Positions 7,995 to 27,194 of a DNA stretch of 60,695 nucleotides are shown one piece after another. Made by a program: the position numbers and the translations under genes. The stretch comes from Candidatus Solincola quzhuomuensis (GTDB taxonomy: Bacteria > Actinomycetota > Geothermincolia > Geothermincolales > RBG-13-55-18). The notes under the pieces were generated by a model. That model did no database searches and was not told where the DNA came from. It saw only the letters and a program-made list of their open reading frames with translations. The stretch's first letter is position 1. Each line of letters starts with the position of its first letter. The stretch spans positions 1 to 60,695 of the forward strand of contig JACVJF010000004.1 in NCBI GenBank assembly GCA_015711855.1, given 5' to 3'.

Positions 7995-8924
7995 TCAGCC
8001 GCCCACGGTGACCGTGAGGCTCCGCGAGGTGAAGATGTCCACGATTCCATACAGCTTTTCTTCAGGATATCCCGCGCCTTCGGGGAAGGGATATTCGAGG
8101 CCGAATATTCGATACTTGGCGCCCGCGTAAGGATGATAGGGGAGGATGTCCACCTCGCATTCCCGGCCGTTGCGGCACAAACCCCGGATGAAGTCGGCGG
8201 TACGGGAGAGGTTTTCCTCCCCGTCGTTGAACCCGGGGATGATGGGGATGCGGAAACGCAGCTCTCGGGCGTATTCCGCCAGCCGCCTGGCGTTCTCCAG
8301 GATGATCTCGTTGGAGGCGCCGCAGTGGGAGCGGTGCGCGGCGGAGTCCATGTGTTTGAGGTCCAACAGAAAGTAATCGGTAACCTCGATCATCCTCTCC
8401 AACGTTTCCCAGGCGGCGAAACCGCAGGTGTCCAAGGCCGTATTGAGTCCGCGCCCCTTGGCCTCCGCCAAAAGGTCGTAGGTGAACTCCGGCTGGGCCA
8501 GAGGCTCACCTCCGGAAACGGTCAGCCCTCCCCCCGAATGCTTATAGAAAGGCTTGTCCTTCTCCACCTCCGCAAGGACCTGGTCCACTGTCATCAGCTT
8601 GCCCCAGACCACGAGGGCCTCTTCCGGGCAGGCTTCGGCGCAGCGGAAACAGTCGATGCACCGTTCCCGGCGTATGCGGGGGAGACGAGGACCCTCCATC
8701 TCGACGGCTCCGGCGGGACATACCTCCAGGCATTTACCGCAACCCGTGCAGTTGTTGCGGTAGGGAAGAACTTCCGGGAATCGCCGGTTGCCCTCGGGAT
8801 TGTGGCACCAACGGCAGTTGAGCAGGCAACCTTTTAGAAACACCGTGGTCCGAATCCCCGGCCCGTCGCAGAGAGAATAGAACTGTATGTCGTTGACGTA
8901 TCCCGCCGTGTCCCTTCTTCCCAT
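7995..8924 (-). CDS. assD: Glycyl-radical enzyme activating enzyme (second copy, AssD-like)
   Basis: DGPGIRTTVFLKGCLLNCRWCHNPE radical SAM motif, two ferredoxin CxxCxxCxxxC insertions, SGGEP. Confidence 0.9.
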   Translation of the reverse strand: MGRRDTAGYVNDIQFYSLCDGPGIRTTVFLKGCLLNCRWCHNPEGNRRFPEVLPYRNNCTGCGKCLEVCPAGAVEMEGPRLPRIRRERCIDCFRCAEACPEEALVVWGKLMTVDQVLAEVEKDKPFYKHSGGGLTVSGGEPLAQPEFTYDLLAEAKGRGLNTALDTCGFAAWETLERMIEVTDYFLLDLKHMDSAAHRSHCGASNEIILENARRLAEYARELRFRIPIIPGFNDGEENLSRTADFIRGLCRNGRECEVDILPYHPYAGAKYRIFGLEYPFPEGAGYPEEKLYGIVDIFTSRSLTVTVGG

Positions 8925-8933: not shown

Positions 8934-9872
8934 TTATCCGCCGATAGTGGTGGCCAGACCTTGTTCTTCCAGGATGTCCTGCAAGTCGGCGATCTCGCTA
9001 GCCGCCAGGCTTTCCACGTCACGGTATTCCCATTCCCTTCCCAACCAGCGGTATTTGTCCTGGCACCAGTTGTGGAAGGGAAGGAGGTCTACCTGGATGA
9101 TGGAGGGACCCAGCCCGGCGAGGAAGCGGGCCACCTGCTCCATGTGTTCCGGGGAATCGTTGAAACCCGGGATGACCGGTATGCGCACGATCACGTCTGC
9201 GCCCACCTCCGCCAGGCGCCGGAGGTTGGCCAGGATGGGTGAGTTGTTCACCCCTGTACGCAGTAGATGCTGCTTGCCGCTGAGGCACTTGATGTCGTAG
9301 AGGAATATGTCCGTGTAGGGACGCATGGAATCCAGGATTTCCCATTCGCAAAAACCGCTCGTGTCCAAACAGTTGTGAATGCCCCGTTCCTTGGCCCCGC
9401 GCAGCAGCTCCCGGGTGAATTCGGGGAAGGCGGTCGGTTCTCCCCCCGTCAGGGTCATGCCTCCGCCGGAATTGATGTAGAAGGGCATGTCCCTTTCCAC
9501 CTCGTCGAGGATCTCCTCTACCGTCTTGGGTTCCCCGACGCGCACCAGTGCGCCGTAAAAGCAGGCCTCCACGCACTTCATGCAATGGTCGCAGCGGGTG
9601 AGGTCTATCTTGTAGTAGTGCTCGTCTTCCTCGTCACCGCGCAAGGCTATGGGTGGCTGGATGGCTCCCCGGGCACAGGAGTCGAAACACATCCCGCACT
9701 GCCTGCACAGTGAGGGTTTCCAGTATATCTCCGGATAGAAATGTATGCACTCCGGGTTGTGGCACCAGGCGCAGTTCAGCCTGCATCCCTTGACGAAAAC
9801 CGTGGTGCGGATGCCCGGGCCGTCGTTTATGGAATAGCGCTGGATGTTGGTGATCAAGACCTGTTGAGACAT
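8934..9872 (-). CDS. assD: Glycyl-radical enzyme activating enzyme (first copy, AssD/MasG-like)
   Basis: DGPGIRTTVFVKGCRLNCAWCHNPE, two ferredoxin-like cysteine clusters, TGGEP, LLPFH. ATG at 9872 after GGGAG. Confidence 0.9.
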   Translation of the reverse strand: MSQQVLITNIQRYSINDGPGIRTTVFVKGCRLNCAWCHNPECIHFYPEIYWKPSLCRQCGMCFDSCARGAIQPPIALRGDEEDEHYYKIDLTRCDHCMKCVEACFYGALVRVGEPKTVEEILDEVERDMPFYINSGGGMTLTGGEPTAFPEFTRELLRGAKERGIHNCLDTSGFCEWEILDSMRPYTDIFLYDIKCLSGKQHLLRTGVNNSPILANLRRLAEVGADVIVRIPVIPGFNDSPEHMEQVARFLAGLGPSIIQVDLLPFHNWCQDKYRWLGREWEYRDVESLAASEIADLQDILEEQGLATTIGG

Positions 9873-9948
9873 TAAAGGACTCCCTTTTCCTTCCTTCCTG
9901 CGCCGAGGCCGCCACGATGTGCCGTGCGGATAACCGGTGTCGCGCACG

Positions 9949-10672: not shown

Positions 10673-10736
10673 CGCTCTACCCCCTTCTCAAGCGGCCATG
10701 ATCGTGCGAGCCGCGACGATTCCAGGCTGACCCCGT

Positions 10737-13226
10737 TCAAACGCCGAGCTCCTGCACGTTGCGGGCGATGATGGTGTCCTGGGTCTTCTTGTTCAGGTCC
10801 ACGAAGTGGGCACTGTATCCGGCGATACGCACGATGAGCTCGGGGTACTTTTCGGGTTCCCTCTGGGCGGCCTTCAGGGTCTCGTTATCCACCATGTTGA
10901 ACTGCACGTGGTCGATCCCCAGCTCGGCCCAGGTCTTGATGTAGGAGTGCCAGATGTGGAAACCCTTTTCGCCGGCCAACTGCTGCGGGGACAGCCTTTG
11001 GTTGAGCAGGGTCGCCCGCACGTCTCCTATGTGGTCGATCTTGGCCACCGAGCGCAGGACGGCCGTGGGCCCTTTCTTGTCCAGGCCCGCTCCGGGAGAG
11101 CAGCCGCCGTCGTACAGGGTATCGCCCAGCCTCCTGCCGTTGGGCAGGGCCCACACCTTGGTGGCGTTGGTCACGTAAGCCGCGATGTTCTCCGGCAGCG
11201 GAGGCCAGGGGTTCCCGGTGGGATCCTTAATCTCCCAGGAGTGCTTGGCCACGTCGCGGTGGCAACGCACGTGTATCTGATCCACGTAGTCGTCGTCGTT
11301 GCCCCACTTGGGAGCGCGCACGAAATCCATGCGCATCTCCTCGTACCCCTCCCAGTTGTTCCTGAGGGCCTCGATGAGCTGGGCCATGGTGTACTTCTTC
11401 TCGTCGAAAACCAACTTCTTTACCGCGGCCAAGCTGTCGCCCGTCTCCATCCAGGCGAAGAAGGTGATCCAGGAATTGCCGCGTTCCGAGGGATGGGAGG
11501 AGTCCACCCCCAGCTCCACGCACCGTTCGTACAGGCCCGAAAGTAGCGGCCTGGGATCCAGGAATTGGGCCATGTAACGGCCTCCGTTGGTCAGCTTGAC
11601 CAGCGTGTCCATCATCCACTTGACCTGGGTGTACCAAGCCTGATAGAGCTCCTCGAAGGTCTCGAACTTGGAGGCGTCACCGGTGTGGGGCCCGAACTGC
11701 ATCTGGAGCACGTTGTCGTAACCGTCGAAGAGTGCGTATTCGATGGCCTTGGCGGCGATGATGGTGGCGTTGGCCATGCGGAAGGGCTGGCACCCCAGCT
11801 TGGTGTCCGGGCAGGGAGACATGCAGGCCTGGTGCACCCAGCGCCGCGCCTCCCGCAGGGGATGCTTGTGCCAGTGCATGGCGTTGGTGATGAGGATGGG
11901 GTCGTTGCGCATGGACGGATACCCCAAGCCCTGGCGAATGCACTCGAACACCTCCCGGAGCGTCTTCATCCTCACGTTCGGATGGTAGCGGAAGGCGAAG
12001 GTGGGGTTGGCCACCCTGACCAAGCGGGCCGCCTCCAAAAGGCAGTCGGTCATGTCGTTGCAGGCGTCGGTGCCGTCCTCGTTGACCCCTCCTATAGTCC
12101 ACACCCAGGTCCCGGTGATTCCCTGCAGGGTATCGCGGGCCAGCATCAGCCAGAACCACCCTACCTCATAGCAGCGGATGAGAAACTCCCCGGTGAGGTC
12201 CAGGGCTTCTTCGTGGGTGAGGACTTTATCCTGGTTGACGTCCTTGTCGTAGAAAGGCCCGTGCCAGTAATCGGGGCGGGCGGGCCAGGCTCCCTCGCAG
12301 GCCTCGTAGCGGCAGGCGATCTGGATGAAGTGGTCGAACTGGAGGGACTCGTGAAGGTGCTCCGGGGGCTTGGCAGGAACCTTCCAGCAGACCTCGGCGA
12401 TGCGCAGGAGCTCTTCCTTGCGCTTGGGATCGGTCTCGAAGTTCTCCGCGATTATCTTGGCCAGGCGGCTGTAACGTCGGGCCCAGCGAATGACCGCCTC
12501 CAGCACCACCTTCATGGACTTCCAGACGTCGAGTTTCTCGTAATAAGGAAGGTCTTCCGGGTCGGGGACCTTGTTGTAGATGCGGTCCTCCGCCTCCTTT
12601 ATGCGCTCGTCGATCTCGGCGATTATTCCCTCCAGACCCAGTCGGAACATGTAATCCCACTGCTTGGTGGCGTATCCTATGCGGGAGATGGGAAGACCCC
12701 AGCCTATGACCCCGGTGAGGAGCTTCACGATCTCCTCGGGCGGCACCAAGTTGAAGACCTTGGCCCCTGTGGTCTGAGGGTTCCAGTAATCGCAGAGCTC
12801 TCGGATGAGCTTCAGGTTCTCGTCCACCGGTTCAGGTATGACCGTCCGGTCGTTGTAGAGGTCCTCGTTGAGTAGGAAGAGGATCTCCGGGTGCCAGACG
12901 ATGGTGTGGGGCCGGGAGCCCAAGTACCCCATTATCTGGGCATGGTCCTGGATGAATATGGTGATGTTGTCGAAGACGTTGGCAAGGGCCTTGGCGTAGC
13001 GCATGCGCAGTGAGTCGTGTTCGTTCGCCTTAAAGGCCTCGGTGAACAGGACCGCTCGCTCAAGGTCGACCTTTACCCCAGGCTGATAGCCCGATCCCTT
13101 GGCTCCCTTCTTCCATACCGCCTTGCGCAGGTAATCCAGCCTTTTGGACCTCTTGTGTTCCGCCCACCACCACCATTGTCCGCTCTTTTCGATCTCCTCG
13201 ATGGTTCTCGTTTCCACCGCAGCCAT
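10737..13226 (-). CDS. assA: Alkylsuccinate synthase alpha subunit (AssA/MasD), glycyl-radical fumarate-adding enzyme
   Basis: About 829 aa PFL-family protein. Cys loop HQACMSPCP is followed by PFRMA (position of the fumarate-binding Arg). Gly loop is VRIAGYSAHF. N-terminal WWW.AE..RSKRLDYLRK.VWKKG is AssA/MasD-like rather than BssA-like. Confidence 0.92.
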   Translation of the reverse strand: MAAVETRTIEEIEKSGQWWWWAEHKRSKRLDYLRKAVWKKGAKGSGYQPGVKVDLERAVLFTEAFKANEHDSLRMRYAKALANVFDNITIFIQDHAQIMGYLGSRPHTIVWHPEILFLLNEDLYNDRTVIPEPVDENLKLIRELCDYWNPQTTGAKVFNLVPPEEIVKLLTGVIGWGLPISRIGYATKQWDYMFRLGLEGIIAEIDERIKEAEDRIYNKVPDPEDLPYYEKLDVWKSMKVVLEAVIRWARRYSRLAKIIAENFETDPKRKEELLRIAEVCWKVPAKPPEHLHESLQFDHFIQIACRYEACEGAWPARPDYWHGPFYDKDVNQDKVLTHEEALDLTGEFLIRCYEVGWFWLMLARDTLQGITGTWVWTIGGVNEDGTDACNDMTDCLLEAARLVRVANPTFAFRYHPNVRMKTLREVFECIRQGLGYPSMRNDPILITNAMHWHKHPLREARRWVHQACMSPCPDTKLGCQPFRMANATIIAAKAIEYALFDGYDNVLQMQFGPHTGDASKFETFEELYQAWYTQVKWMMDTLVKLTNGGRYMAQFLDPRPLLSGLYERCVELGVDSSHPSERGNSWITFFAWMETGDSLAAVKKLVFDEKKYTMAQLIEALRNNWEGYEEMRMDFVRAPKWGNDDDYVDQIHVRCHRDVAKHSWEIKDPTGNPWPPLPENIAAYVTNATKVWALPNGRRLGDTLYDGGCSPGAGLDKKGPTAVLRSVAKIDHIGDVRATLLNQRLSPQQLAGEKGFHIWHSYIKTWAELGIDHVQFNMVDNETLKAAQREPEKYPELIVRIAGYSAHFVDLNKKTQDTIIARNVQELGV

Positions 13227-13607
13227 TTTCAACCCCCTTATCTCTCGTCTTTCTTACGGGAATCGTCAGCTGGCTTTGCCGGCACGAAAAGGCTCCGTGA
13301 TCGTTTCCCCCAAAGCCGCTTACCGCCATCCCCCCTCTCCTCTCCGTCGGTCCCGCGTGACCTCTCCAAGTAAAGCGTCGAAGAAAAGCCCTTTGGACAA
13401 CTCTCCGTTGCTGCGTTGCGGCGATGCCTTGTGCGGACCTTTTCTCGTGCTGGGGTGCGTCTGCTGCGAAGAAAGGTAGATGCTGTGCAAGAAATTGTTC
13501 GATCGTCGCTTACCTACTCATTCCCTCAAAAAATTCAACTTGTATTTAGTAACCAGTTCTTAATTTTTATTATATTTCCTAATAAACTGGTATGTTAATT
13601 TGCCTTA

Positions 13608-13636
13608 ATTTTAGTAAAAGTGCACTAAATTTTCAA
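13608..13636 (-). promoter_or_regulatory. Putative sigma70-type promoter of the ass operon
   Basis: Minus strand TTGAAA (13636-13631), 17-nt spacer, TAAAAT (13613-13608), inside a strongly AT-rich island. Confidence 0.6.
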
Positions 13637-13860
13637 GGGGTTTTTCAATCTTTTTGGTGAGTTTTTTCCCGGGAGGGACGAGTTGCCACGACCAATTCGC
13701 TGGCAGTGCTCCAAAGCATGAGACTCGGAACCTGGGAGGGGGATTATCGAAAGGCACCTGCTCGCGGGCATGGCGTCGCCTCGTCGCGCCTTATCGGCAG
13801 AATCGCCCTTTTTAGCGAATATGGCCGCTCTTCCGCTCTTTTGCAGGAGGAAGGCCGGCC

Positions 13861-14661
13861 CTAACGCCCCTTGAACACGGGATCCCGCTTCTCTCGAAAA
13901 GCCGCCAAACCCTCCCTGGCGTCCTCGCTGGCCAGAGCTCGTCCCATCACGGCGTTGGCTTCCTCGCGTTCCTCCTCGGTCAGCGCCCGTGGCTGGGAGA
14001 TCATCTTGAGCAGTCGCTTGTGACCGGCCAGGGACAGGGGGGCGTTGGAAGCCAGGCGGTGGGCCAGATTCTCGGTGAAAGCCTCCAGTTCCTCATCGGG
14101 GACGAGATAGTCCAGCATCCCCATCTCGAATGCTTCCCGGGCCTCGAAGAGCTCGGCGGTGAGGAACACCTTCTTCGTGCGGGCCAGCCCCAGATTGCGT
14201 AGGAAGCGGTGTAGACCTTCCGGCGGGTAGACAATGCCCAGGCGAGCCGGGGGCATGCCCATGCGGCAGTTCTCCGACCCCACCCGCAGGTCGCAGGCCA
14301 TGCTGGTCTCGCATCCGGCCCCCACGCAGTAGCCCCTGATCATGGCGATGACCGGGAAGGGGCAGTCCTCGATGGCCTCCAACCCGTACTGCAGGGGACC
14401 CTTGGCCTCTATCTGCTTCTGGACCTCCTCGGGGATGCCCTCGGGCACGGCAGAGAGGTCCATACCGGCGGAAAAAGCCTTATCTCCGGATCCTCGAAGC
14501 ACGGCGCAGCGTACCGTCCCCCTCTCGGCCAAGTCCTGCAGGGCCCGAGCCAGGGAAATGAGTAGGGGGACGGATAGCGCGTTCCTGCGCTTCGGCCGGT
14601 TGATGGTCAGGAAAGCCAGCGGTTCCCTGATGTCCACCAGAAGCTCTTCGGCATCGCTCAT
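13861..14661 (-). CDS. Crotonase-superfamily protein, ScpB/methylmalonyl-CoA decarboxylase-like
   Basis: NRPKRRNAL, FSAGMDL, GAGCE and EG..AFREKR.P.F motifs. The second catalytic Glu position reads PPARLGIVY. Confidence 0.85.
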   Translation of the reverse strand: MSDAEELLVDIREPLAFLTINRPKRRNALSVPLLISLARALQDLAERGTVRCAVLRGSGDKAFSAGMDLSAVPEGIPEEVQKQIEAKGPLQYGLEAIEDCPFPVIAMIRGYCVGAGCETSMACDLRVGSENCRMGMPPARLGIVYPPEGLHRFLRNLGLARTKKVFLTAELFEAREAFEMGMLDYLVPDEELEAFTENLAHRLASNAPLSLAGHKRLLKMISQPRALTEEEREEANAVMGRALASEDAREGLAAFREKRDPVFKGR

Positions 14662-15098
14662 GGCCGCACCTCCCGTCTTTATTCTCTTATCTGTCTTTTT
14701 GCCGTCGGTTCACCCCTCTTGTCCCCGGGAAAAGATACGGAAGCAAACTGTACCTAAAAAGCACTCAGGCGACCGTCCAGGCCATTTAAAAATATTAACA
14801 CCAAGATCCCTCGCCCGCTTTGTGGTTCGCCCCTCGCTCCTTCCCCGCCCGGCCTTTCCCTCCGCGGCACCCGCCGAGGAGGGAAATCGTTTTTTCCTTT
14901 CGGGCACTTCCCTTGAGTGGCCGATAGCTCCTATGGCGGTCGAAAGGGAGCGCCTTTCACGCCCCTCTTTTACCGCTTCCGAGCGGGGGTCACGAGGACG
15001 TCGCGCTCGCTTTGCGATTCACGAGGGCATAACGGAGGGGAAGGCTCGGTGGTTCCCCGTCCGCATGCCCCCCTCGGGCGGCTGCCGGGGACGATCCC

Positions 15099-16646
15099 TC
15101 AGGAAGAGGCCCCGCCGTAGAGCTTGCGCAGTTCCTTCTTCAGGATCTTGCCGGTGAGGGTGCGGGGGATGGCCTCCACGAAGGTTATCTTCTTGGGTAT
15201 CTTGTAGCGGGCGAGCTTCCCCTCGCAGAAGGCCTCCATCTCCTCCATGGTGAGGGGGTCATCCGGGTTCTCCAGAAGGATCAGGGCGTGACCCACCTCA
15301 CCCCATTTCTCGTCCGGCATGCCGATGACCGCCACGTCCTTGACCTTGGGGTGCTCCATGAGCACCTTCTCCACCTCGGCGGGATAGATGTTCTCTCCGC
15401 CGGAGATGATCATGTCCTTCTTGCGGTCCACGACGTAGATGTACCCGTCCTCGTCCACGGTGGCCAGATCCCCGTAGTGGAACCATCCATCTTTCATCGC
15501 CTCCGCGGTCTCCTCGGGCATGTTCCAATAGCCCAACATCACGTAAGGGCCGCGGGAGCATATCTCCCCCACCTCGCCGGACCCCGGCCTCACCTCCGTG
15601 CCGTCCTCCTTGAGCACCTTCACCTCGGCGTGGAACATGGGGATGCCCGCGCTGCCGATCTTTTCCATGTTGGAACAGGAAAGCACGATGGAAGTCTCCG
15701 TGCACCCGAAGACCTGGATGAGGAGGGGCACCTTCATCTTCTCCACGATGCGGTCCAGTAGCTCCCGGGAGGCGGGAGCACCCCCTATCCCCACCCCCTT
15801 GAGGGAGGAAAGGTCGTACTGGGAGAAGCTGGGGACGTCCAGCATCATCTGGAGCATGGTGGGCACGGCGCCGAAGTGGGTGACCCGGTGGCGGTCGATG
15901 ATCTGTAGGGCCTCCTCCGGGTTCCAGAATCTCTGGAATATTATGGTACCTCCGATGTAGAAGGTGGGCATGGTGATGATGTTCAGGCCCCCGGAGTGAA
16001 AGAGGGGTATGGAGACCAGGGAGACGGCGTTGATGTCGAAAAGCAGCTCCAGGGTGTCGTTGAAGGTGTTCCAGAAGGTCTTGCGGTGGGGGAGCACAGC
16101 CCCTTTGGCCCGGCCGGTGGTCCCGGAGGTGTACATGATCATCTGGGGGTCCTCCATGTCTGGCGGTTCGGGTACCGCGGGTTCCTCTTCCCCGAAACCG
16201 GCCAACCACTCCTCGTAGGGGCGGCTGAAGTCGGGGACCGGGTCCCCCGCCGTGGCCAAGATCTCTATGGGTTCGCGGTAGAGCTCCCTCAGCTGACCAA
16301 CCGTGCCCGCAAACTCCGGGTGGAAGAAGAAGGCCCGGGGGTTGGTGTCCTTGAAGACGTACTCCAGTTCTTGGGGTGTGAGGCGGAAGTTGAGGGGGAT
16401 GAAGATGAACCCCGTCTTCGCACAGGCGAAGTACACCTCCATGAACTCGATGCTGTTGAAGAAGAGGGCGGCCACCCGGTCTCCTTTCTTCAGGCCCGCC
16501 TGGAGGAGCCCGTTGGCCACCTGGTTTACGCGTCCGTTGAACTCCGTATAGGTGAGAGCGCGATCCCCGGCTATGAAGGCCGTCTTGTCCTTGGTGAGAG
16601 GAAAGACAGCCCTCTTTAAAGCCCAGTTGCCCACGTTCACGATCAT
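15099..16646 (-). CDS. Acyl-CoA synthetase (AMP-forming; AssK-like candidate)
   Basis: YTSGTTGRAKG, FGCTET, GDL, DRKKDMIISGGENIYPAEVE and GKILK adenylation motifs. Confidence 0.92.
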   Translation of the reverse strand: MIVNVGNWALKRAVFPLTKDKTAFIAGDRALTYTEFNGRVNQVANGLLQAGLKKGDRVAALFFNSIEFMEVYFACAKTGFIFIPLNFRLTPQELEYVFKDTNPRAFFFHPEFAGTVGQLRELYREPIEILATAGDPVPDFSRPYEEWLAGFGEEEPAVPEPPDMEDPQMIMYTSGTTGRAKGAVLPHRKTFWNTFNDTLELLFDINAVSLVSIPLFHSGGLNIITMPTFYIGGTIIFQRFWNPEEALQIIDRHRVTHFGAVPTMLQMMLDVPSFSQYDLSSLKGVGIGGAPASRELLDRIVEKMKVPLLIQVFGCTETSIVLSCSNMEKIGSAGIPMFHAEVKVLKEDGTEVRPGSGEVGEICSRGPYVMLGYWNMPEETAEAMKDGWFHYGDLATVDEDGYIYVVDRKKDMIISGGENIYPAEVEKVLMEHPKVKDVAVIGMPDEKWGEVGHALILLENPDDPLTMEEMEAFCEGKLARYKIPKKITFVEAIPRTLTGKILKKELRKLYGGASS

Positions 16647-16831
16647 CACCCCCGTCAATCCCTGCTTCTCCGGACCCTGGCGAAGGCTTTCATGGCGGGC
16701 AGGCCGGAAAGAGGACCTAATATTGGGAGCTTCATGTCTCGCCTCTTTCTTCCCCGGACCGCACTTCCGCGGTAGGGAGGACGCGAATCCGAGGATCCGG
16801 TTTTGCCCAGCTCCGACAGCCCACGGGCAAA

Positions 16832-16926
16832 ATTATGGTATAAGGTTCACCTGATGTAAAGTATTAAAGTTCATAATCACTAAAATAGTTATTATGGAAA
16901 ATTGTCCCATAATATCGTATTTATGG
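16832..16926. promoter_or_regulatory. Divergent promoter region with alternating ATTATGG/CCATAAT boxes
   Basis: Boxes at 16832, 16872, 16891, 16907 and 16920. Minus-strand TTTACA (16860-16855)-N17-CATAAT (16837-16832) fits a promoter for the ligase. Confidence 0.55.
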
Positions 16927-17177
16927 CTTAAATAATATAAAATTCTACCTAATGAATATTTCTTTACACCGCCTTTTTTCTCTGATAACATACCCTGCAA
17001 AAGGGGTGGATGCGAGGCATCGGCAGCATTGCGGTTCTCACGCTACGATCGAGATAAAAACGGAGAATGCCGGGGGCGAACCGCCTTCCCCGTCGTCCGC
17101 TCCTTTCGGCGTTGAATGTCAAGCGGAACACGCACTGTTGCAGGAGGATCCGTAACGCGTATCGAGGGGGGATGGGT

Positions 17178-18539
17178 ATGAACGAGTTGGCGGAGGTGGG
17201 AAAGTTCGTCTGCGGGCTGAGGTACGAGGACGTTCCGGGCGAGGTGATGGAAGCGGCGAAGCTTCCCGTCATCGACTGCCTCGGGGTGACGGTGGCCGGC
17301 CTTGAAGACGAGGGATCGCGCATCGTGGCCGAATGGGTGGATTCCGTAGGCGGCAGGGAGGAGGCTACCGTTTTCTACGGGTTCAGGAGGAGCGCTGCGC
17401 CTCTGGCGGCTCTGGCCAACGGCACCGCCGCTCATGCCCTGGATTACGACGACGTGAGTTTCCGCATGATGGGACATCCTTCCGTGGCCCTGGTTCCGGC
17501 CGTCGTGGCCCTAGGGGAGGTGCTGGGCTCGTCAGGGAAGGATTTCCTGCTGGCCTACGTGGCCGGGCTGGAGGTGGCCGCAAAGGTGGGAGCGGCCCTG
17601 GGCGGCAACTCCTACATGCTCGGATGGCACCATACCAGCACCTTGGGAGTCCTGGGCGCCGCCGCTTCAAGCGGGAAGTTGCTGGGGCTGGACGAGGAGA
17701 AGATGACCCACGCTCTGGGCATCTCCTGCTCCATGGCCATGGGCATCCGGGCCAACTTCGGGACCATGACCAAACCTCTTCACGCAGGAGCCGCGGCCAT
17801 GAACGGGGTCATCGCCGCTCAGCTCGCCGACCGTGGGTTTACCGCCAATCCCGACGCCCTCTACGGCGAGAACGGTTTCGCGCGTGCCTTCACCTCAGAC
17901 CTGGAAAAGGCGGAGGAACTGCTTAAAAGCCTAGGAGAGCCCTACGAGCTCACGGATCCCGGCCTCTCCTTCAAGCCTTATCCCTGCTGCCGGGGACCGC
18001 AGGGGGCCATCGACGCAGCTTTGGCGGCCAGGGAGGAGTGGAAGAAAAAGGGGAAGATCGATCCCTCGGATGTGGAGAGAGTGGAATGCCGGGTGCCCTC
18101 CTGGTTGAGGTCGGTACTCGTATATCACGAGCCGAAGACCGGCACGGAAGGGAAATTCAGCCTGGAGTTCTGCGTGGCCGCCGCCCTCCTGGAAGGCAAG
18201 GTGGGCGTGGGCCAGTTCAGGGACGAGGTGGTGACCTCGGAGCCGGTGGCGGAGCTCATACGCCGCTTTGACTGGCAGGACCTGGAAGGGGAGATCACCA
18301 GTCCCTTCGCCTCCGAGGTGGTGGTCCATCTGAAGTCGGGGGATAAGGCGACGGGCAAAGCGGAGAGACCCCTGGGCGAGCCGGGCAATCCCATGAGCCA
18401 GGAGCAAATTCACGACAAGTATCGGGAATGCGTGGGGAGCATCCTGGGCTACGCGGTCGCCGACTCCACCTTGGAGATGCTGCGGAACCTGGAGAGGCTG
18501 GACGACGTGAACAGCCTGGTACGCGCCTACCGGGGATGA
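17178..18539 (+). CDS. MmgE/PrpD family protein (iminodisuccinate-epimerase-like)
   Basis: ANGTAAHALDYDD, GHPS, Y..GWH, KPLHAG, KPYPCC and GEPGNPMS motifs. Confidence 0.92.
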   Translation: MNELAEVGKFVCGLRYEDVPGEVMEAAKLPVIDCLGVTVAGLEDEGSRIVAEWVDSVGGREEATVFYGFRRSAAPLAALANGTAAHALDYDDVSFRMMGHPSVALVPAVVALGEVLGSSGKDFLLAYVAGLEVAAKVGAALGGNSYMLGWHHTSTLGVLGAAASSGKLLGLDEEKMTHALGISCSMAMGIRANFGTMTKPLHAGAAAMNGVIAAQLADRGFTANPDALYGENGFARAFTSDLEKAEELLKSLGEPYELTDPGLSFKPYPCCRGPQGAIDAALAAREEWKKKGKIDPSDVERVECRVPSWLRSVLVYHEPKTGTEGKFSLEFCVAAALLEGKVGVGQFRDEVVTSEPVAELIRRFDWQDLEGEITSPFASEVVVHLKSGDKATGKAERPLGEPGNPMSQEQIHDKYRECVGSILGYAVADSTLEMLRNLERLDDVNSLVRAYRG

Positions 18540-18587
18540 GACGCGGCCCTTCCCCCCCGCCTTTAGCGGAGCGGCCGCGGGGCGAAC

Positions 18588-19004
18588 CTAAGAAGACGTC
18601 CCCAAACGGGTGCGTATGAAATCCGCCACCTGCGAGATGTAGGTCCCGGAGACGAAGACCTCGGCCACCCCCATCTCCTTGAGCTTGGGGATGTCCTCGG
18701 CCGGGATGATCCCGCCCACGAGGACCATCTTGTCCTCCACGCCCTTTTCCCGGAGGAGGGACATGATCCGACGCACTATGCTCAGATGGGCTCCGGAGAG
18801 GATGGATAGACCGATCACGTCCACGTCCTCGTCCACGGCGGCGTTGACGATCTCCTCCGGGGTGCGCCTCAAGCCGGTGTAGATCACCTCGAATCCCTCG
18901 TCCTTCAGGCCGTAGGCGATGACCTTGGCCCCTTGGTCGTGCCCGTCCAGGCCCGGTTTGGCTATGAGCACCCGGATAACCTTTCCACCCGTTTTGGCTT
19001 CCAT
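18588..19004 (-). CDS. Acyl-CoA mutase cobalamin-binding small subunit
   Basis: [12 protein letters not shown] (DxHxxG), SILSGAH and GGIIP motifs. Confidence 0.95.
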
Positions 19005-19018
19005 GATTTACCTCCCCG

Positions 19019-21043
19019 TCAATCCATCACCGTCTCGCACCTCAGGAGCTCCACCTTAAGGCCCGTTTCCCTGGCGATATCGAGGTATGCCCGACCGGTT
19101 AGGTCCCTTCCCCAGCGGCTGAGATGGAAGGGGGAGGAGGGAATGATCACCAGGTCGGGCTTCTCGCCGTGTTTTTCCATCCATTCTTGGAGGTGGTCTA
19201 TGTAGTCCTTCACCACCAGCAGGTCTCCGAGCATTATGTTTCCCCCGAAGAAGCGATTCTCCGGAACGCTCAGTCGCAGTTCCGAGCCCTCCGGGAGGTT
19301 GATCGGGTTTTCCTCCAGCAGCTGTTCCAGGGTGGGGCGGACAAGACGCGAGGTGAGGAGAAGGACCAGGCGTGCCTCCGATCGGCGCACCATGCCCTCC
19401 AGGACCCGGAGGTAGGAGACTCGCAGACCGCTCCCCATGAAGGCCACCCCCAAGTGGGTTCCGGTGTGAAAGTCGAAAGGATAAGAGTACCGGCGAGTCT
19501 CTCCGCCTAGCTCCACCGCTTTGCCATCCCTTCTCACCAGGAGAGAGACCTTTTCCTCCCCGCTATTCTGAAGCAGGGTTAGCAAGTCGCGGGCCTGGGG
19601 ACGGTTGAGCACGTTGATCCCGTTAATCCGAAGGATGACGTCTCCCGGTCTGAGTCCCCAGGATTTTGCCGGAGAGTTGGGTACCAGCCCGATCACCTCC
19701 GGAAGGTTCTTTCGCTCCCGGGTGAGGTTCTCCTCGTAAAGCGCGGGGCTCAACACCAGAGGGCAGGGAAGGTCGCTGCGCATTTCCCCTACCAGCCGTA
19801 CCACGGCGCCCCATACCTCCTCGGTGTCGAAGAGCGGTGTCGAGGAGAAGAACCTAGAGTAACCGGGAAGGTTGACCTGAACCAGCCGCGCCCCGCAGCC
19901 CGCGGCGTAGGCGCAGGTCCTCTCCAAGTCCCGCAGCATCTCCTCCAAGGAGGGTTCCGGCCAGGCCACCACGGTGACGGCGAAGGGAATGGCCGCATCC
20001 GCCAGCCTGGGGAGAGAGTGGATGGCCGTCTCGGGTCTCCGGTCCCCCATGAGGAAGGAGCGCCGGGCGGGGTCGGAGCTGTTGAGGGAGACGTCCAGAA
20101 AGAGAGGGGCTAGGCCTGCCAGCTCCTCGACGAAAGCCTTATCCAGGCGGCAGCCGTTGGTGGCCAGACGGAAGGGCGCGTCGGTCCTCTCCCGCAGGCG
20201 GCGGAGCAGAGGTATGATGCGCGGATGGGCCAGCGCCTCACGGGGTCCGCCGAAGGTGGGGAAAAGACCTCGCCGCGCCAGAGGGCGGTAGTGGGCGATC
20301 CTGGCTTCCAGTCTCTTCCAGTCGCTTACCGGGTCGGCTGGCGGCTGCATGAGGGAGGGGAGGGATCCTCGGTGATAACAGAACCGGCATCGACAATCGC
20401 ACCGGTCGGCGGCATGGAGTATCACGTCCTCCGCGCTGTCCACCGGGGCGTCCGTCCAGTCGGAAAGGCGGCGCAGCCGGAACCCGTCCACCTCCACCGG
20501 CTGGCCCTCGCGCTCCAGCTGCACCAGCGAGAGCAGGCTCTCCAGCTGGCGGGCCAGGAAGTCCAGGCGGGGCTCGTAGAGGGCCGCGTTGGCCCGACTC
20601 AGGAAAGGCGGGACCGGATACCCCCGGGAGTTGGCCCTTTTCGACGGGCCGGCTATGCAGGAGCGCTCCTGGGGAGGACTTATAATTCTCGGTCGTGCTT
20701 GGCGATTTTCGTCCGCCTCGTAGGATTCGGTTACCGAATCGTTTTTCGAAGTGGGATATATGTCGTGCACCGCCCCGTCCGGGCCCAGAAAGCGGAAGCC
20801 GTCCACCTCCACCTCCCTACCTCCCTCCAGGAGGCGTATCACGGACAAGAGGTTGCGGAGTTGCTCGCGTATCAGCTGCACGTGAGGATCCGGTCCCCGC
20901 GACCCGCCTCCGGCTTGTCGCAAGGGATAGCGGAAAAGAGCCCCTTCGACCTCCTCCGCCCCCGTTGTCGCAGCGGGGGCGGTATTTCGGGCCGCCGACT
21001 CGCGCTCCGCCGAGAGCCGCTGACGTTCCATCCTCGTCACCAC
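19019..21043 (-). CDS. Radical SAM protein with PDZ-like and C-terminal DUF512-like domains
   Basis: CDCRCRFC motif; PDZ-like SPA...GLRPGDVILRING; DUF512-like ENRFFGGNIMLGDLL...D. Start position uncertain. Confidence 0.75.
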   Translation of the reverse strand: MVTRMERQRLSAERESAARNTAPAATTGAEEVEGALFRYPLRQAGGGSRGPDPHVQLIREQLRNLLSVIRLLEGGREVEVDGFRFLGPDGAVHDIYPTSKNDSVTESYEADENRQARPRIISPPQERSCIAGPSKRANSRGYPVPPFLSRANAALYEPRLDFLARQLESLLSLVQLEREGQPVEVDGFRLRRLSDWTDAPVDSAEDVILHAADRCDCRCRFCYHRGSLPSLMQPPADPVSDWKRLEARIAHYRPLARRGLFPTFGGPREALAHPRIIPLLRRLRERTDAPFRLATNGCRLDKAFVEELAGLAPLFLDVSLNSSDPARRSFLMGDRRPETAIHSLPRLADAAIPFAVTVVAWPEPSLEEMLRDLERTCAYAAGCGARLVQVNLPGYSRFFSSTPLFDTEEVWGAVVRLVGEMRSDLPCPLVLSPALYEENLTRERKNLPEVIGLVPNSPAKSWGLRPGDVILRINGINVLNRPQARDLLTLLQNSGEEKVSLLVRRDGKAVELGGETRRYSYPFDFHTGTHLGVAFMGSGLRVSYLRVLEGMVRRSEARLVLLLTSRLVRPTLEQLLEENPINLPEGSELRLSVPENRFFGGNIMLGDLLVVKDYIDHLQEWMEKHGEKPDLVIIPSSPFHLSRWGRDLTGRAYLDIARETGLKVELLRCETVMD

Positions 21044-21161
21044 CTCACTTCAGCCGGTGCGCCGTTCGGGTGGGCTCGCGCTCTGCGCAACCCGGTTTTT
21101 CACGGCCGGCGATAACCGTATGCCAGGGGACGGAAGGGATTCCCTTCACCGTCCCCCAGGG

Positions 21162-22925
21162 TCAGAAGGGGGACACGGCCTGGTATTCCCCGAAGACCTC
21201 CCGCAGCACGTCGCATATCTCCCCCTCGGTCACGTAGGCCTTCACGCACTGGATGAGGTGAGGGAGCAGGTTCTCCTCCTCCTTCCGGGCCAAGTCTTCC
21301 AGCTCCTTCAGGAGGCGAGCCACCTCCCGGCCGTCGCGGTTCCTCTTGATCTCCGCCAGGCGGGCCTTCTGCCTCTCCTCCGCGCGCTCCCTCCTCTCTG
21401 GGTCGTAGGGGTTGGGGACCAGGCGGTTGGTGGTCACCTCCAGCTCGTGCTCGCCGGTGAAGCAGTTGACCCCCACCACCAGGCGTTCGCCCCGCTCTAT
21501 GGCTCGCTGCCGCTCATAGGCGCTGCGGGATATCTCCCTCTGCATGTACCCGTTTTCTATGGCCGCCACCGCTCCGCCCATCTTCTCGATCTTCTCCAGT
21601 TCCTCCCAGGCGGCGTTCTCGATCTCGTCGGTGAGGGACTCCATGCAGTAGGAACCGGCGAATGGATCGGTGTACTCCAGGAGGCGCGCCTCGCAGGCGA
21701 TGATTCTCCCCGCGTCCTGGGCCAGCTGCAGGGCTTCCATGCTCCACCCCAACCCCAGGGGCTCGTCGTAGGGCGGGAAGGGGAGGGGCCGTCCTCCGGA
21801 GAGGGCGCTGGCCACCGCCCCGATGACCGCCCGGGTGAGGTTGTTCAGCGGCCGTTGCAAGGTGGTGGAGGAGGGCCCGATGTGAGCCCCGATGGCCTGG
21901 CGGATGCGCATGCTCCGCTCGTCCCGGGCCCCGAAGCGCTCCTTGAGTATCCGGGCGTACATGCGGCGGGCCGCCCGCTGGAAAGCGATTTCCTTGAGCA
22001 TCTCCATGGAGCCCCCGAAGGCGTTGAAGGTGAAGCGGGGGGCGAACTCGTCCACCTCGAGTCCGGCTTCCACCCCCACCTTGAGATATTCCACGGCGAT
22101 GGCCATGGAGAAGGCCAGGTCCTGCTCCCGGGTGGCTCCGGCCTCCCTTATGTGGTAGCCGCCTATGCTGGTGATGTTCACGTTGGGCATGTGCCTGGTT
22201 ATGAAGACCAGGCTGTCCCGGAAGAGGCGCAGGGCGTGTCTCGGCGGGAAAATGTAGGTGCCGCGGGCGATGTATTCCTTGAGGATGTCGTTCTGGGGGG
22301 TGGCCCGCAACTTATCCAGGGGGATGCCCCGCTTCTCGGCCAGGGCGGCGTACATGGCGATGATCACGTTGGCCGGGGCGTTGATGGTGAAGTTGGAGGC
22401 GATGCGGTCGAGGTTTAAATCCCCCTGATAAGGCTCGTAGATGATCTCGAAGTCGGCCAGGGTGTCCACGCACACCCCCACCTTGCCCACCTCCCCCTCG
22501 GCCAGGGGATGGTCGGAGTCGTAGCCGCACTGGGTGGGGAGGTCGAAGGCCAGGTTGGGGCCCCCTCGGCTCCCTTGCTCGAGAAGACCCTTGTAGTAAT
22601 CGCGGGTGTCCTCCGGGGTGCCGTATCCGGAATAGATGGCGGCGCGGGTCTGCCCTCCGGCTCCGGGGATCTCCCCCTTTCCCCCCGCCAGAGAGGCCAG
22701 TCGAGCCAGCCCGGCCATGGGTTCTATGGGAAAGGTACCGGCGGTGAAGGGATAGGTGCCCGGGAAGCCCACCTTCTCCAGGAAGTCGAAGGGCTCGATG
22801 TCCAGAGGGGTGAAGAAGCGGCTGCTCTCCTTGTTCAGGTAGGGAAACTTCTGAATGGCTTTGGCCAAGGGCCCTTCCTCCCAGGCGCGCCGCGCCTCGC
22901 TTATCTTTTCCAGATACTCGTTCAT
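21162..22925 (-). CDS. Acyl-CoA mutase large subunit, divergent methylmalonyl-CoA mutase family
   Basis: PGTYPFT.G, AFDLPTQCGYDSD, GEVGKVGV, QNDILKEYIARGTYIFPP, GYHIREAG, DPFAGSY and VVGVN motifs. ATG at 22925 after AAGGGG. Confidence 0.93.
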   Translation of the reverse strand: MNEYLEKISEARRAWEEGPLAKAIQKFPYLNKESSRFFTPLDIEPFDFLEKVGFPGTYPFTAGTFPIEPMAGLARLASLAGGKGEIPGAGGQTRAAIYSGYGTPEDTRDYYKGLLEQGSRGGPNLAFDLPTQCGYDSDHPLAEGEVGKVGVCVDTLADFEIIYEPYQGDLNLDRIASNFTINAPANVIIAMYAALAEKRGIPLDKLRATPQNDILKEYIARGTYIFPPRHALRLFRDSLVFITRHMPNVNITSIGGYHIREAGATREQDLAFSMAIAVEYLKVGVEAGLEVDEFAPRFTFNAFGGSMEMLKEIAFQRAARRMYARILKERFGARDERSMRIRQAIGAHIGPSSTTLQRPLNNLTRAVIGAVASALSGGRPLPFPPYDEPLGLGWSMEALQLAQDAGRIIACEARLLEYTDPFAGSYCMESLTDEIENAAWEELEKIEKMGGAVAAIENGYMQREISRSAYERQRAIERGERLVVGVNCFTGEHELEVTTNRLVPNPYDPERRERAEERQKARLAEIKRNRDGREVARLLKELEDLARKEEENLLPHLIQCVKAYVTEGEICDVLREVFGEYQAVSPF

Positions 22926-23522
22926 CTCATCCCCCTTTCCCCGCTCGCATGGTCCGTATTGACCCGTTACGTAGGTTATAGGCGATTCCGCAAGGACGGC
23001 TCCGCGTAGGGTAGCGCAAGACGCAGCCACCACCAAGATTATAATCACCCTCCGGGCTTATGGCCTCCGCAACGTCCCGAGCACCCGTCGACGTCTACGT
23101 GCTCCGGGTTGCGGGACGGCGTGGATTTACCTCGCCCCCGGGACGAGCGCTCGTAGCCCCCTTTTTCCCGCCTCGGGCGGGACTCCGTAGCCTCTAACCT
23201 TCGGCGGAAGCCTTGCCGTTCCGATTGGCACGAAGCGGGAGCAGCGGCCGAAACGCTCGCGCGCCAAACCCCCTCCTCCCTAGGCCGTATGCAGCCGGGC
23301 GTTCGTGGTCAGCAAATGTTCACTTCTACTAAAGTTATTACATATCGGACCTTATGGCAAGAAGCGAGGATGTACGATCAATCCGCCACCGGTATACTCC
23401 GCGAGATAATGAAACCGTTTGGAAGCTGCCTTAAGCAACCTTTACCCGGAGGCAACAGATTCTTAACGCTTATGGCCGATAATGGGAGAGGATGTCGGAT
23501 GGACCCGGAGGGAGGATCGGGG

Positions 23523-25040: not shown

Positions 25041-25471
25041 GAAAACGCTCAAGCCTTAAGTCGGAAGCGGTTCGTCGGATACGCCTTATCCTGTTCTTCG
25101 AGACCCTGCTGGTCGTGGGAAGCGTGGTCGCCGCCTACTTGCTGCAATGGCGCATCCCACTGCCCGTCTGGCTCGCGGTACCCGCCGGGCTTCTGCTGTG
25201 GCTTGGAGGGTTGATGTTTACCTTGAACCGGCGGAGGAGATGGATGGCGCAAAACGGGGTGAGATCGCGAAGGGGAGGGCGGAATGGCTACCCCCTGGTT
25301 AAGGCCAGGGGGATCATGCACCTGGGAGTGGCCCTCGGCTTCCGTTCCTGGCCCACTTTGGCCTTAGCGGCGGTCCTCTTCGCGTTGAACCTGATCCTGG
25401 CCATGCGGACAAGACGCCTCATGCCGGAGAGACCGTGGAGACGGAGGGATACCTCGCCCGTCAACCCTTAA
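25037..25471 (+). CDS. Small hypothetical membrane protein
   Basis: ATGA overlap with the upstream gene; three to four hydrophobic segments. Confidence 0.65.
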   Translation: MRKRSSLKSEAVRRIRLILFFETLLVVGSVVAAYLLQWRIPLPVWLAVPAGLLLWLGGLMFTLNRRRRWMAQNGVRSRRGGRNGYPLVKARGIMHLGVALGFRSWPTLALAAVLFALNLILAMRTRRLMPERPWRRRDTSPVNP

Positions 25472-25571
25472 ATCGTTTATGGAAGGCAATCGCCGAGCCG
25501 TGCATGGGACCGAGGATTGCTGCTCTCTCCATCGTACGGTGACGATCCTCTTTGCCCGGTCCCGATTCAGG

Positions 25572-25600
25572 TTGACAAGGGCACGGCGCGTTAACAAAAT
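25572..25600 (+). promoter_or_regulatory. Putative sigma70-type promoter
   Basis: TTGACA (25572-25577)-N17-CAAAAT (25595-25600). Confidence 0.5.
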
Positions 25601-25846
25601 TACCTCCCGAAAGAGCTGTTTTGCAGAGGTTTTATTCGTAAAAAAGGGAGACCTTGAGAGGTAAACGGAAATACCTTCCATTCTCAATGGCTGAAGGGCC
25701 GGAGATGAAGGAGACGAGGCGAGCGGCATTGAGGAGCGCCGTTAGGGTTTTTCCGGATCCGCGGGTCGAAGGACCGTAAAACGGCCGAAAGCCTCGAGTA
25801 AAAGCCAAGGCCACGGGAAGGAAAAGGGTTTGGAGGAGGGAGGAGG

Positions 25847-26350
25847 ATGGCGGATCCCGAGCACTTGGAGATACTCAAACAGGGGGTCAAAGCCTGGAAC
25901 GAATGGAGGAGGCAAAACGTTTATCTGGTGCCTGACCTGTACGGCGCCGACCTGCGGGGTTTGGATCTGCAATACGTTCACTTCATGCGCGCCAACCTCG
26001 GGGAGGCCAACTTGGCGGGATGCAACCTCCGGAAGTCCTACCTGGTGGGGGCTTACTTGCACGGGGCCGACCTCTCCGGATGCGACCTGGAAGGGGCGGA
26101 CATGCGCGGTTGCCACCTGAGCGGGGCAAAGCTGCGCGGCGCACGCCTGGTGGGGGCGGTGCTCAACAAGGCTTTGGCCGTGGGTGTGGATTTCACCGGG
26201 GCGGACATGAGGTCGGCCATGATGCTGGGCACCAACCTGGAGAACTCCGATTTCACCGGTGCGGACATGGAGGACGTGGACCTGACGGACGCCAAGCTGA
26301 AGGGCGTCAAGACGGAGGAAGTGAGAGGTTACCGCTTCCCAAGGCGGTAA
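25847..26350 (+). CDS. Pentapeptide repeat protein
   Basis: Tandem A(D/N)Lxx repeats after a ...GVKAWNEWR N-cap; strong GGAGG RBS. Confidence 0.93.
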   Translation: MADPEHLEILKQGVKAWNEWRRQNVYLVPDLYGADLRGLDLQYVHFMRANLGEANLAGCNLRKSYLVGAYLHGADLSGCDLEGADMRGCHLSGAKLRGARLVGAVLNKALAVGVDFTGADMRSAMMLGTNLENSDFTGADMEDVDLTDAKLKGVKTEEVRGYRFPRR

Positions 26351-26351
26351 C

Positions 26352-27194
26352 TCAGTAGACCCAGCCCGGGAAGGTACACACGCCGGCCGGCTCCCTGGCC
26401 CGATACATCTCTATGCCCCTCCAGGGCTCTCCCAAGATGCCGTCGTGTATGGCCCAGGCCCTCCCCCGTACCGACTTCTCCATGCCCGGACGGCGGAAAG
26501 GGGTGCTCCCGTCCAGCTTCTCGTACAGTTCACCGCCCGGTTGGAAGCCGGCGTGGATCTCCTCCATCCTTCGCTTCCCCCTTATATAGTTGAAGCCGTA
26601 ATACTCGAAGATTATGGCGGTGTTGTAGGTGAGAGGCTCGGCGATGACCATGTCCTGACCCATGGCGATGACGAAGTCGCGGGCCAGGGGCACGAAATCT
26701 TTGAGCAAGCGGAGGCCCCGGCGGACCTGGCCGGGGGCCAAGCCCGCCTCCATGGCCCTGATCTCCTCGGGGATGTTGCGTCGCACGGTGGCGAACTTGG
26801 TACGCCTACCCGTCTCGTCCACGTCGGTGTCGAAGCGGGGACTGCGGGGATCGTTGATGATGAGGAAGTTGATCTCGATCTTAAAGAAGGGGGTGTCCTC
26901 GATCTCCAGGTAGAAGATGCAGTCCCGGTCGTCGGGGTTCTCCCGCACCTCGATGACGGCGAAGGTGGACTGGGGATGAGCGGTTATCTCCACCACCCGC
27001 TCGCCCTTCGGGTTTTGGAAGGTCTCCGGGTCGATGCCGAAGAGACCGAAGACCTTGTCCGGTACGAGCATCCCGTAAAGCCTGTCCTTGACCTCCTTTT
27101 CCAGTTGGTTGAGATCGTGGATGTTGCGGTGGGGGGCGTTTCCCGCGAGGGCACGGAATCTTTCCGCAAATTCCTCGGACACCCGATCATCCAT
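26352..27194 (-). CDS. Conserved hypothetical protein (possibly GNAT-like fold)
   Basis: Well-formed globular 280-aa ORF overlapping the GMC gene stop; function not recognised. Confidence 0.7.
   Translation of the reverse strand: MDDRVSEEFAERFRALAGNAPHRNIHDLNQLEKEVKDRLYGMLVPDKVFGLFGIDPETFQNPKGERVVEITAHPQSTFAVIEVRENPDDRDCIFYLEIEDTPFFKIEINFLIINDPRSPRFDTDVDETGRRTKFATVRRNIPEEIRAMEAGLAPGQVRRGLRLLKDFVPLARDFVIAMGQDMVIAEPLTYNTAIIFEYYGFNYIRGKRRMEEIHAGFQPGGELYEKLDGSTPFRRPGMEKSVRGRAWAIHDGILGEPWRGIEMYRAREPAGVCTFPGWVY

Follow-up and report, generated by a model that had tools for sequence, protein, structure and literature searches.

The window considered here, a stretch of 60,695 nucleotides (nt) from the actinobacterium Candidatus Solincola quzhuomuensis, contains a gene for a radical S-adenosylmethionine (SAM) protein with a PDZ domain and a DUF512-like C-terminal domain, which is lodged between the genes for the large and the small, B12-binding subunit of a split acyl-coenzyme A (CoA) mutase (Table 1). 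All three genes are read from the minus strand, and the ATG of the small-subunit gene lies 14 nt past the stop codon of the radical SAM gene, with a GGGGAGG sequence in the gap. In this respect, the open reading frame (ORF) coordinates confirm a preliminary description of the locus, which had placed the gene between the two mutase genes, on their strand and 14 nt before the small-subunit start. The ORF runs for 674 amino acids (aa) from a GTG codon at position 21043. Judged from the sequence, the likelier start is the ATG at position 21031, which has a GAGGTG about 9 nt upstream and gives a protein of 670 aa, as long as the database copy (P0002). Of the four split mutase pairs encoded by the host genome (2.69 Mb, 96 % complete), three have their large- and small-subunit genes 58-230 nt apart, as obtained by subtraction of coordinates, and only the pair of the window is interrupted by a 2-kb gene. 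Since the same arrangement recurs in relatives, as described below, it is not a product of chance.

The order of the domains, that is, radical SAM core, PDZ and DUF512-like, is the one that the preliminary description had proposed from the sequence, with the Pfam match to DUF512 falling below the cut-off; in addition, the protein possesses about 200 N-terminal residues which went unmentioned there. An alignment of 43 homologous sequences was used to delimit the different parts. Within the N-terminal region, a module of about 35 residues occurs twice (hhalign between the two repeats: 98.5 %, E 2.4e-15, 34 columns); the copies are separated by a linker whose length differs among homologues, and many relatives of 520-600 aa carry repeat 2 alone. 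An Atlas feature search with the N-terminal module returned nothing at or above 0.9 (best 0.81), and the module folded alone (predicted local distance difference test, pLDDT, 75.4) reached a best Z of 3.6, with none of 48,161 chains at Z >=5. The predicted module thus shows no recognised fold, which is not proof of a new one. In the radical SAM core, Pfam Radical_SAM (PF04055) matches residues 213-374 at 41.8 bits, against a cut-off of 29.5. The CxxxCxxC motif is formed by C215, C219 and C222, which are invariant in all 43 sequences, and Y223 stands next to the third cysteine; the core matches many solved radical SAM enzymes at Z 11-14, which places the protein in the radical SAM superfamily. 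The PDZ domain bears an I-G-L motif at residues 451-453, with G452 invariant, and a helix segment in which Q483, A484, R485 and L488 are likewise invariant. In VIA comparisons it superimposes on the PDZ domain of RseP (Z 12.7, root mean square deviation (rmsd) 1.9, 85 residues aligned).

Table 1. The radical SAM gene, the parts of its product, the mutase genes and further genes of the cluster (positions in the window)
Feature	Position	Strand	Basis or remark
Radical SAM/PDZ/DUF512-like gene	19019..21043	-	ORF 674 aa from GTG 21043; likely 670 aa from ATG 21031
N-terminal repeat 1, residues ~37-95	20759..20935	-	one helix and short strands
Variable linker, residues ~99-148	20600..20749	-	pLDDT <50; length differs among homologues
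N-terminal repeat 2, residues ~150-205	20429..20596	-	family alignment, hhalign
Radical SAM core, residues ~206-440	19724..20428	-	Pfam, alignment, fold search
PDZ domain, residues ~446-515	19499..19708	-	Pfam PDZ_6 453-505, 45.4 bits
DUF512-like Rossmann-type (putative cobalamin-binding) domain, residues ~520-674	19022..19486	-	profile and fold comparison
Acyl-CoA mutase large subunit, special branch	21162..23048	-	PF01642 MM_CoA_mutase, E 2.4e-138
Mutase small, B12-binding subunit, DxHxxG-type motif	18588..19004	-	PF02310 B12-binding, E 5e-24; TIGR00640
MmgE/PrpD-family protein	17067..18539	+	nearest solved relative iminodisuccinate epimerase, E 2.2e-66; part of recurring module
AMP-dependent acyl-CoA ligase	15099..16658	-	Pfam match
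Crotonase-fold (ECH) protein	13861..14661	-	methylmalonyl-CoA decarboxylase among best solved matches
AssA-like glycyl radical enzyme	10737..13232	-	PFL-like and Gly_radical
Two glycyl-radical activating enzymes	8934..9947 and 7995..8924	-	NCBIfam TIGR02494-type, 334-339 bits

In the C-terminal domain, Pfam DUF512 (PF04459) matches residues 556-637 at 20 bits (E 4.5e-4; 22.3 bits in a second run), against a cut-off of 25, and the match spans profile positions 96-171 only. At E <=0.01, 35 of the 43 family members match PF04459 (best E 1.2e-6) and 34 match Radical_SAM_2. As the score of the single protein lies below the gathering cut-off, the protein is, on its sequence, filed as a divergent DUF512 relative and not as a curated PF04459 member. 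From the PDB as a whole, a profile built from the last 160 residues of 38 sequences retrieved three chains at E <=10. The best two are the solved DUF512 proteins 9CG1 (E 0.022) and 9CG2 (E 0.17), and the third is a weaker, unrelated match (E 0.59). Compared with a second profile, based on 26 canonical DUF512 domains of Actinomycetota, the C-terminal profile aligned over 122 columns, covering positions 75-200 of 201 (hhalign, 98.35 %, E 1e-14); the alignment of the whole family against one canonical DUF512 protein matched the PDZ only (87.7 %).

The predicted structure points in the same direction. The AlphaFold model of the whole protein (pLDDT 79.0; predicted template modelling score, pTM, 0.76) retrieved 9CG2 at 7.4e-11, 9CG1 at 8.3e-10 and Mmp10 at about 5e-6 with Foldseek. 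In the VIA comparison, the top row is 9CG2 (Z 22.1, rmsd 3.6, 315 residues aligned), rows 2-6 comprise four Mmp10 entries at Z 17.2-17.6 and 9CG1 at Z 16.8, and these six best rows all cover model residues ~200-674; the next row is an unrelated radical SAM enzyme (Z 14.3, 219 aligned).

That DUF512 is a class of cobalamin-binding domain, as the preliminary description had assumed, is in print in PMC11659888 (Wang et al. 2024), where three determinants of cobalamin binding are named for the class 2 enzymes: a leucine at the lower axial face, a threonine or serine bonding the dimethylbenzimidazole, and an aromatic residue between the iron-sulfur cluster and the corrin. In the alignments, which are the only source of these pairings, all three appear to have counterparts. 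Specifically, L608 aligns with the lower-axial L366 of csDUF512 (9CG1) and with the first leucine of the canonical T-G-L-L motif, S565 pairs with the canonical threonine in the profile alignment, and Y223 follows the third cysteine C222 as F95 does in csDUF512; S565 and L608 are both invariant in the family. Because profile, fold and determinant matches agree, the C-terminal domain is, by sequence and model, a divergent DUF512-type (Mmp10-like) domain, and cobalamin probably binds to it. The assignment that the preliminary description had made from the sequence is thus upheld by profile comparison and by fold search, and fails at the Pfam cut-off. In other words, sequence and model together show that the protein belongs, as a divergent member whose domains stand in a new order, to the Mmp10/DUF512 ('class 2') cobalamin-type radical SAM enzymes.

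The comparison with the known members of this class makes the divergence apparent. As in pfDUF512 of Pyrococcus furiosus (9CG2) and csDUF512 of Clostridium sporogenes (9CG1), the core is followed by a C-terminal Rossmann-like domain; the window protein also has in common with them an N-x-F-F-G ... G-L-L-type motif with the lower-axial leucine and the aromatic residue after the third cysteine. The similarity in sequence is nevertheless marginal, as the Pfam and PDB scores given above indicate. Both csDUF512 and the window protein carry a PDZ domain, which is N-terminal in the former and lies between the core and the C-terminal domain in the latter, and the solved DUF512 proteins do not share the extra N-terminal residues with their internal repeat. 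In the csDUF512 type, the N-terminal PDZ completes a short barrel and the middle aspartate of a DDD motif binds the unique iron (PMC11659888). Having its PDZ at residues 446-515, after the core, and no DDD in the family consensus after the cluster motif, where other PDZ-bearing DUF512 proteins have it, the window protein does not belong to this type.

The host genome also encodes a canonical PDZ/Radical_SAM_2/DUF512 protein of 456 aa (contig C2, ~42270-43640), between cmk and der, and hence possesses two different DUF512-type enzymes. The canonical protein scores 163 bits on DUF512, compared with 20 for the window protein, differs from it in domain order, and sits in a housekeeping context, whereas the window gene is part of a mutase operon. 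In the phylum sample, the canonical protein was found in 37 of 121 genomes, and the mutase-linked gene in 12 of 401.

Mmp10 (7QBS-7QBV) has the same two-domain fold, with 315-319 residues aligned (model 202-674 on chain 1-376), at 14-15 % identity in the structural alignment. Unlike the window protein, it has neither a PDZ nor N-terminal repeats, and it is archaeal and linked to methyl-coenzyme M reductase (MCR), whereas the window gene is bacterial and linked to a mutase. The family profile matched no Mmp10 chain among the PDB sequences at E <=1; given this and the bacterial operon context, the protein is not an Mmp10 orthologue. Nor is it a glycyl-radical activase, as no TIGR02494-type NCBIfam match was obtained. 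MeaB/ArgK chaperones resemble the window gene in being accessory genes inside mutase operons; they are GTPases, and the window protein has no GTPase domain and an unrelated fold.

The distribution of the gene follows that of one mutase branch. In a phylum sample of 401 genomes, the radical SAM gene occurs in 12, and the orthologous mutase (E <=1e-140) in the same 12. Within the order, 15 of 30 genomes carry the gene, and a mutase of at least 81 % identity is found in exactly these 15; in the remaining 15 the best mutase match does not exceed 47 % identity. An AssA orthologue (at least 84 % identity, three as fragments) is present in 14 of the 15 gene-bearing genomes of the order. In the fifteenth (G409, 91 % complete) the gene and the mutase are there, and AssA was not found. 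Conversely, the relative G402 (82 % complete) has an AssA orthologue as well, in an ass locus (contig C2, 22000-41000) that comprises AssA (88 %), the ligase (72 %), the ECH protein (65 %) and the PrpD-like protein (61 %). This locus contains a different mutase (44 %, in small-then-large order), and the radical SAM gene was not found in it. The most telling single case, G402 amounts to a natural swap experiment: the same ass cluster, another kind of mutase, and no radical SAM gene.

A metagenome scan with the family alignment extended this picture to 80 loci, whose neighbouring genes were identified by tblastn with the window proteins at E <=1e-8. A mutase subunit was detected in 41 of these loci, the 80 including many short contigs. 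Twenty-five loci were treated as distant, their protein being less than 50 % identical to that of the window and the gene having at least 4 kb on either side. Of these, 20 contain the mutase, 23 an ECH gene (some of them, matched at 24-35 % identity, may encode other crotonases), 18 a PrpD-like gene, four the ligase and one AssA. The mutase is nearly always on the strand of the gene, in at least four gene orders, namely ECH-rSAM-large-small, large-small-MeaB-ECH-rSAM, large-rSAM-small and large-ECH-rSAM-small (rSAM, the radical SAM gene). In several lineages the gene directly precedes that of the B12-binding subunit, with gaps of 14-28 nt; as to immediate neighbours within 300 nt, the ECH gene was counted in 22 of 71, mcmL in 13 and mcmS in six. 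Pfam annotation of seven loci adds family III CoA-transferases, tripartite ATP-independent periplasmic (TRAP) dicarboxylate transporters, carboxyl transferases and acyl-CoA dehydrogenases. The gene is thus shown to accompany specifically a single branch of the split acyl-CoA mutases, and not AssA. The AssA-like gene belongs to the local cluster and is unlinked to the radical SAM gene in the distant loci. Consequently, of the linkages to mutases and to ass genes that the preliminary description had envisaged, the first held in 20 of the 25 distant loci and in all 15 gene-bearing genomes of the order, and the second was not supported for AssA.

More than 120 full-length homologues at 41-80 % identity are available, and 398 family representatives at E <=1e-30; the source names include Actinomycetota, Thermodesulfobacteriota/Syntrophales, Chloroflexota and Bacillota. 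In the 22 longer relatives (685-747 aa), the added N-terminal sequence contains no Pfam domain, and none of them is fused to a part of the mutase, in a search that covered forms of up to 1180 aa. At the other end (19022-19039, minus strand), the window protein stops five residues past the invariant C669, in a pattern Cys-any-Thr/Pro-Ile/Val/Met-aromatic-Asp/Glu that varies very little among more than 70 distinct sequences. Such a fixed tail length suggests a structural or catalytic place for the terminal carboxylate or for C669.

The mutase has peculiarities of its own. The nearest solved relative of the large subunit is the large subunit of 2-hydroxyisobutyryl-CoA mutase (E 3.4e-105), ahead of the methylmalonyl-CoA mutases. 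At two aligned positions, which we take to be Tyr89 and Arg207 of the Propionibacterium methylmalonyl-CoA mutase, the window mutase has Tyr and Arg, as does methylmalonyl-CoA mutase, and HcmA has Ile and Gln. The conservation of this methylmalonyl-CoA mutase-type pair points to a succinyl-like, carboxylate-bearing substrate. In each of the 34 linked large subunits, 13-25 inserted residues (residues ~108-133 in the window mutase) directly precede the motif of the active-site Tyr; this insertion is absent from the four unlinked mutases compared, that is, the one of G402 and the three paralogues of the host genome. The motif itself is changed in the same 34 and in none of the four. In the window, insertion and changed motif, with Tyr replacing Phe, occupy 22623-22727 on the minus strand (large-subunit residues ~108-142). 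Branch-specific invariant residues of the large subunit include C174, R135 and R277. By its full-length similarity and by the operons of this insertion-bearing branch, the radical SAM protein is assigned to a mutase-linked family of radical SAM-PDZ proteins. The C-terminus of the large subunit was also considered as a ligand of the PDZ domain and dropped, as hydrophobic tails are not confined to the linked branch: 35 of 36 distinct large-subunit tails end in F, L, I, V or Y, and among the unlinked paralogues of the host one ends in F, the others in A and C.

How the enzyme serves its mutase can be approached from the content of the recurring module. Candidates for transport, CoA activation, rearrangement and decarboxylation exist in it without the radical SAM protein, the ECH protein being the decarboxylation candidate in view of its matches. 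We tentatively prefer, at clearly less than even chance, a mechanism in which the enzyme modifies the mutase protein itself, because the radical SAM enzyme is the component of the module left over and follows the mutase branch, and because of the analogy with Mmp10 and MCR. The Mmp10 gene adjoins the genes of the enzyme that its product modifies. According to PMC11659888, Mmp10 is a B12-dependent arginine C-methyltransferase which methylates its neighbour enzyme MCR. In the window protein, the cluster held by C215, C219 and C222 would cleave SAM, and cobalamin, bound base-off over L608 and S565, would carry the methyl group, as it does in Mmp10. Docking of the mutase would fall to the PDZ domain and the N-terminal repeats, and the product would be a posttranslational modification, most simply a C-methylation, needed by this branch of mutases and located perhaps in or near the branch-specific loop.

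A number of points weigh against such a mechanism. To our knowledge, no modification of any acyl-CoA mutase has been described, and sequence cannot show one. The genomes of one order are kin and not independent samples, and the outgroup for the insertion consists of four unlinked mutases only. The commonest immediate neighbour in the distant loci is the ECH gene and not that of either mutase subunit, and the ass cluster of G402 has another mutase and no radical SAM gene. Moreover, the PDZ of csDUF512 helps to complete the barrel (PMC11659888), so that a PDZ need not mean a protein substrate, and a paper on the ass genes of Smithella (PMC13685792) lists, in its main text, the mutase and argK and never uses the words 'radical SAM'. 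Finally, co-variation with the mutase branch would fit equally well a substrate-level role tuned to the mutase. Co-folding of the whole protein with the small subunit scored 0.00 in two runs without controls, which is no evidence either way.

Such a substrate-level role is a possibility that we hold to be only slightly less probable. That is, the protein might be a pathway enzyme acting on a small molecule, by radical epimerisation or C-methylation of a substituted succinate or its CoA ester, giving the isomer that the mutase accepts. The invariant C669, in its tail of fixed length, could donate a hydrogen atom, and the known radical SAM epimerases use a cysteine for this purpose. The other genes of the operons code solely for pathway enzymes and transporters (a ligase or a family III CoA-transferase, ECH, PrpD-like, TRAP and carboxyl transferase), with the ECH gene as the commonest direct neighbour, and G402 could spare the gene if its mutase has another stereo-preference. 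An epimerase acting after fumarate addition has been postulated and is left unassigned in PMC13450708 and PMC6776118. For this step there are, however, competing candidates. On the sequence, the PrpD-like protein is a candidate alkylsuccinate epimerase, because its closest solved structure is iminodisuccinate epimerase, and the CoA_transf_3 proteins are another, their family including alpha-methylacyl-CoA racemase. It also counts against a small-molecule role that the four other functions of the module already have their candidates, that enzymes acting on small molecules do not usually have a PDZ and additional repeats at the N-terminus, and that we know of no methylated intermediate in the pathway.

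It is less probable, and in our view unlikely, that the protein handles the cobamide of the mutase, either by taking cob(II)alamin from the inactivated enzyme and re-forming the cofactor via the 5'-deoxyadenosyl radical derived from SAM, or by loading the cofactor onto the small subunit. Such a role would agree with the cobalamin-type domain of the protein, with the strict linkage to one mutase branch and with the position of the gene directly before that of the B12-binding subunit; in addition, csDUF512 was isolated with a mixture that contained adenosylcobalamin (AdoCbl), as stated in PMC11659888. On the other side, the usual loading system is present, as MeaB occurs in the genome and together with the gene in seven loci, the three other mutases of the host do without such a gene, and a hydrophobic leucine under the corrin is a pattern tied to radical methylation (PMC11659888). 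No such reaction was found in the literature examined.

The preliminary description had pointed out that no MeaB chaperone is visible. This is true of the window, in which the search of the host's own genome placed none. A single host MeaB lies alone on contig C44 between fdhD and ychF, with weak matches on contigs C11 and C23, all of them outside the window. Among 94 loci, seven carry MeaB, all seven belonging to the 80 of the metagenome scan, and in one (L029) it shares an operon with the gene, so that its absence from the window carries no weight. Accordingly, the idea of a MeaB substitute is rejected, since the host encodes the chaperone and the seven loci contain it together with the gene. 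The idea of a genome without adenosyltransferase is likewise rejected, as a CobA-type protein scores 210.9 bits; no PduO-type enzyme was found above the cut-off in the host genome. On contig C79 (1147-3996), the CobA-type gene stands directly upstream of the most canonical mutase pair, that is, next to a mutase other than that of the window, which speaks against cobamide handling by the radical SAM protein.

Two further explanations hardly survive the comparison of loci. Maturation or modification of AssA, which the preliminary description had included among the possible roles and which would be in keeping with the common cluster of both genes in the window and in actinobacterial relatives, is very improbable given the single AssA among the 25 distant loci, the opposite cases of G409 and G402, and the two ordinary activases already at hand for AssA. 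Chance adjacency of a housekeeping radical SAM enzyme, suggested by the housekeeping-like character of canonical DUF512 proteins, of which the host copy adjoins der and cmk, is hardly credible for a patchy gene that matches a mutase branch genome by genome and keeps its linkage through several gene orders.

It is conceivable, though far from assured, that the window gene encodes the first dedicated radical SAM/B12 maturase of an AdoCbl isomerase, acting through modification of the branch-specific active-site loop of a substituted-succinyl-CoA mutase or by rebuilding AdoCbl from SAM and cob(II)alamin. The latter route of radical coupling, if true, would bypass the ATP-dependent adenosyltransferase. 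Should the mutase itself be the target, it would be indicated for the first time that a B12 isomerase may depend on a radical SAM maturase.

What the DUF512-type radical SAM enzymes catalyse is described as unknown in the structural paper (PMC11659888) and in two reviews (PMC13331322 and PMC12931638). A DUF512 branch which follows one mutase branch genome by genome limits the choice of substrates to three that are open to tests with recombinant proteins, namely the mutase, the cobamide of the mutase and its CoA-ester substrate. Anaerobic alkane degradation is touched as well, as the steps from the alkylsuccinate to the rearranged CoA ester, including the epimerisation, are unassigned (PMC13450708 and PMC6776118). 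The orthogroups listed for ass islands in the main text of PMC13685792 include the mutase, argK, MmgE/PrpD and ECH. Our literature search brought up no report of a radical SAM/PDZ protein acting as a partner of acyl-CoA mutases.

As to the remainder of the window, the region 7995-23048 constitutes an AssA-type alkane-activation cluster in an actinobacterial genome; in one published paper on Candidatus Solincola the words alkane, assA and mutase are all absent. Four ORFs of 121-280 aa, at 25364-27194 and 28737-29177 on the minus strand, surround a gene for a GMC oxidoreductase and have no Pfam or NCBIfam match. On the other flank of the ass cluster, at 1932-6925, lie genes for a biotin carboxylase, a carboxylase subunit with a biotinyl domain, BioY and a biotin ligase, and these biotin-related genes may serve a carboxyl-transfer or decarboxylation step of the pathway.

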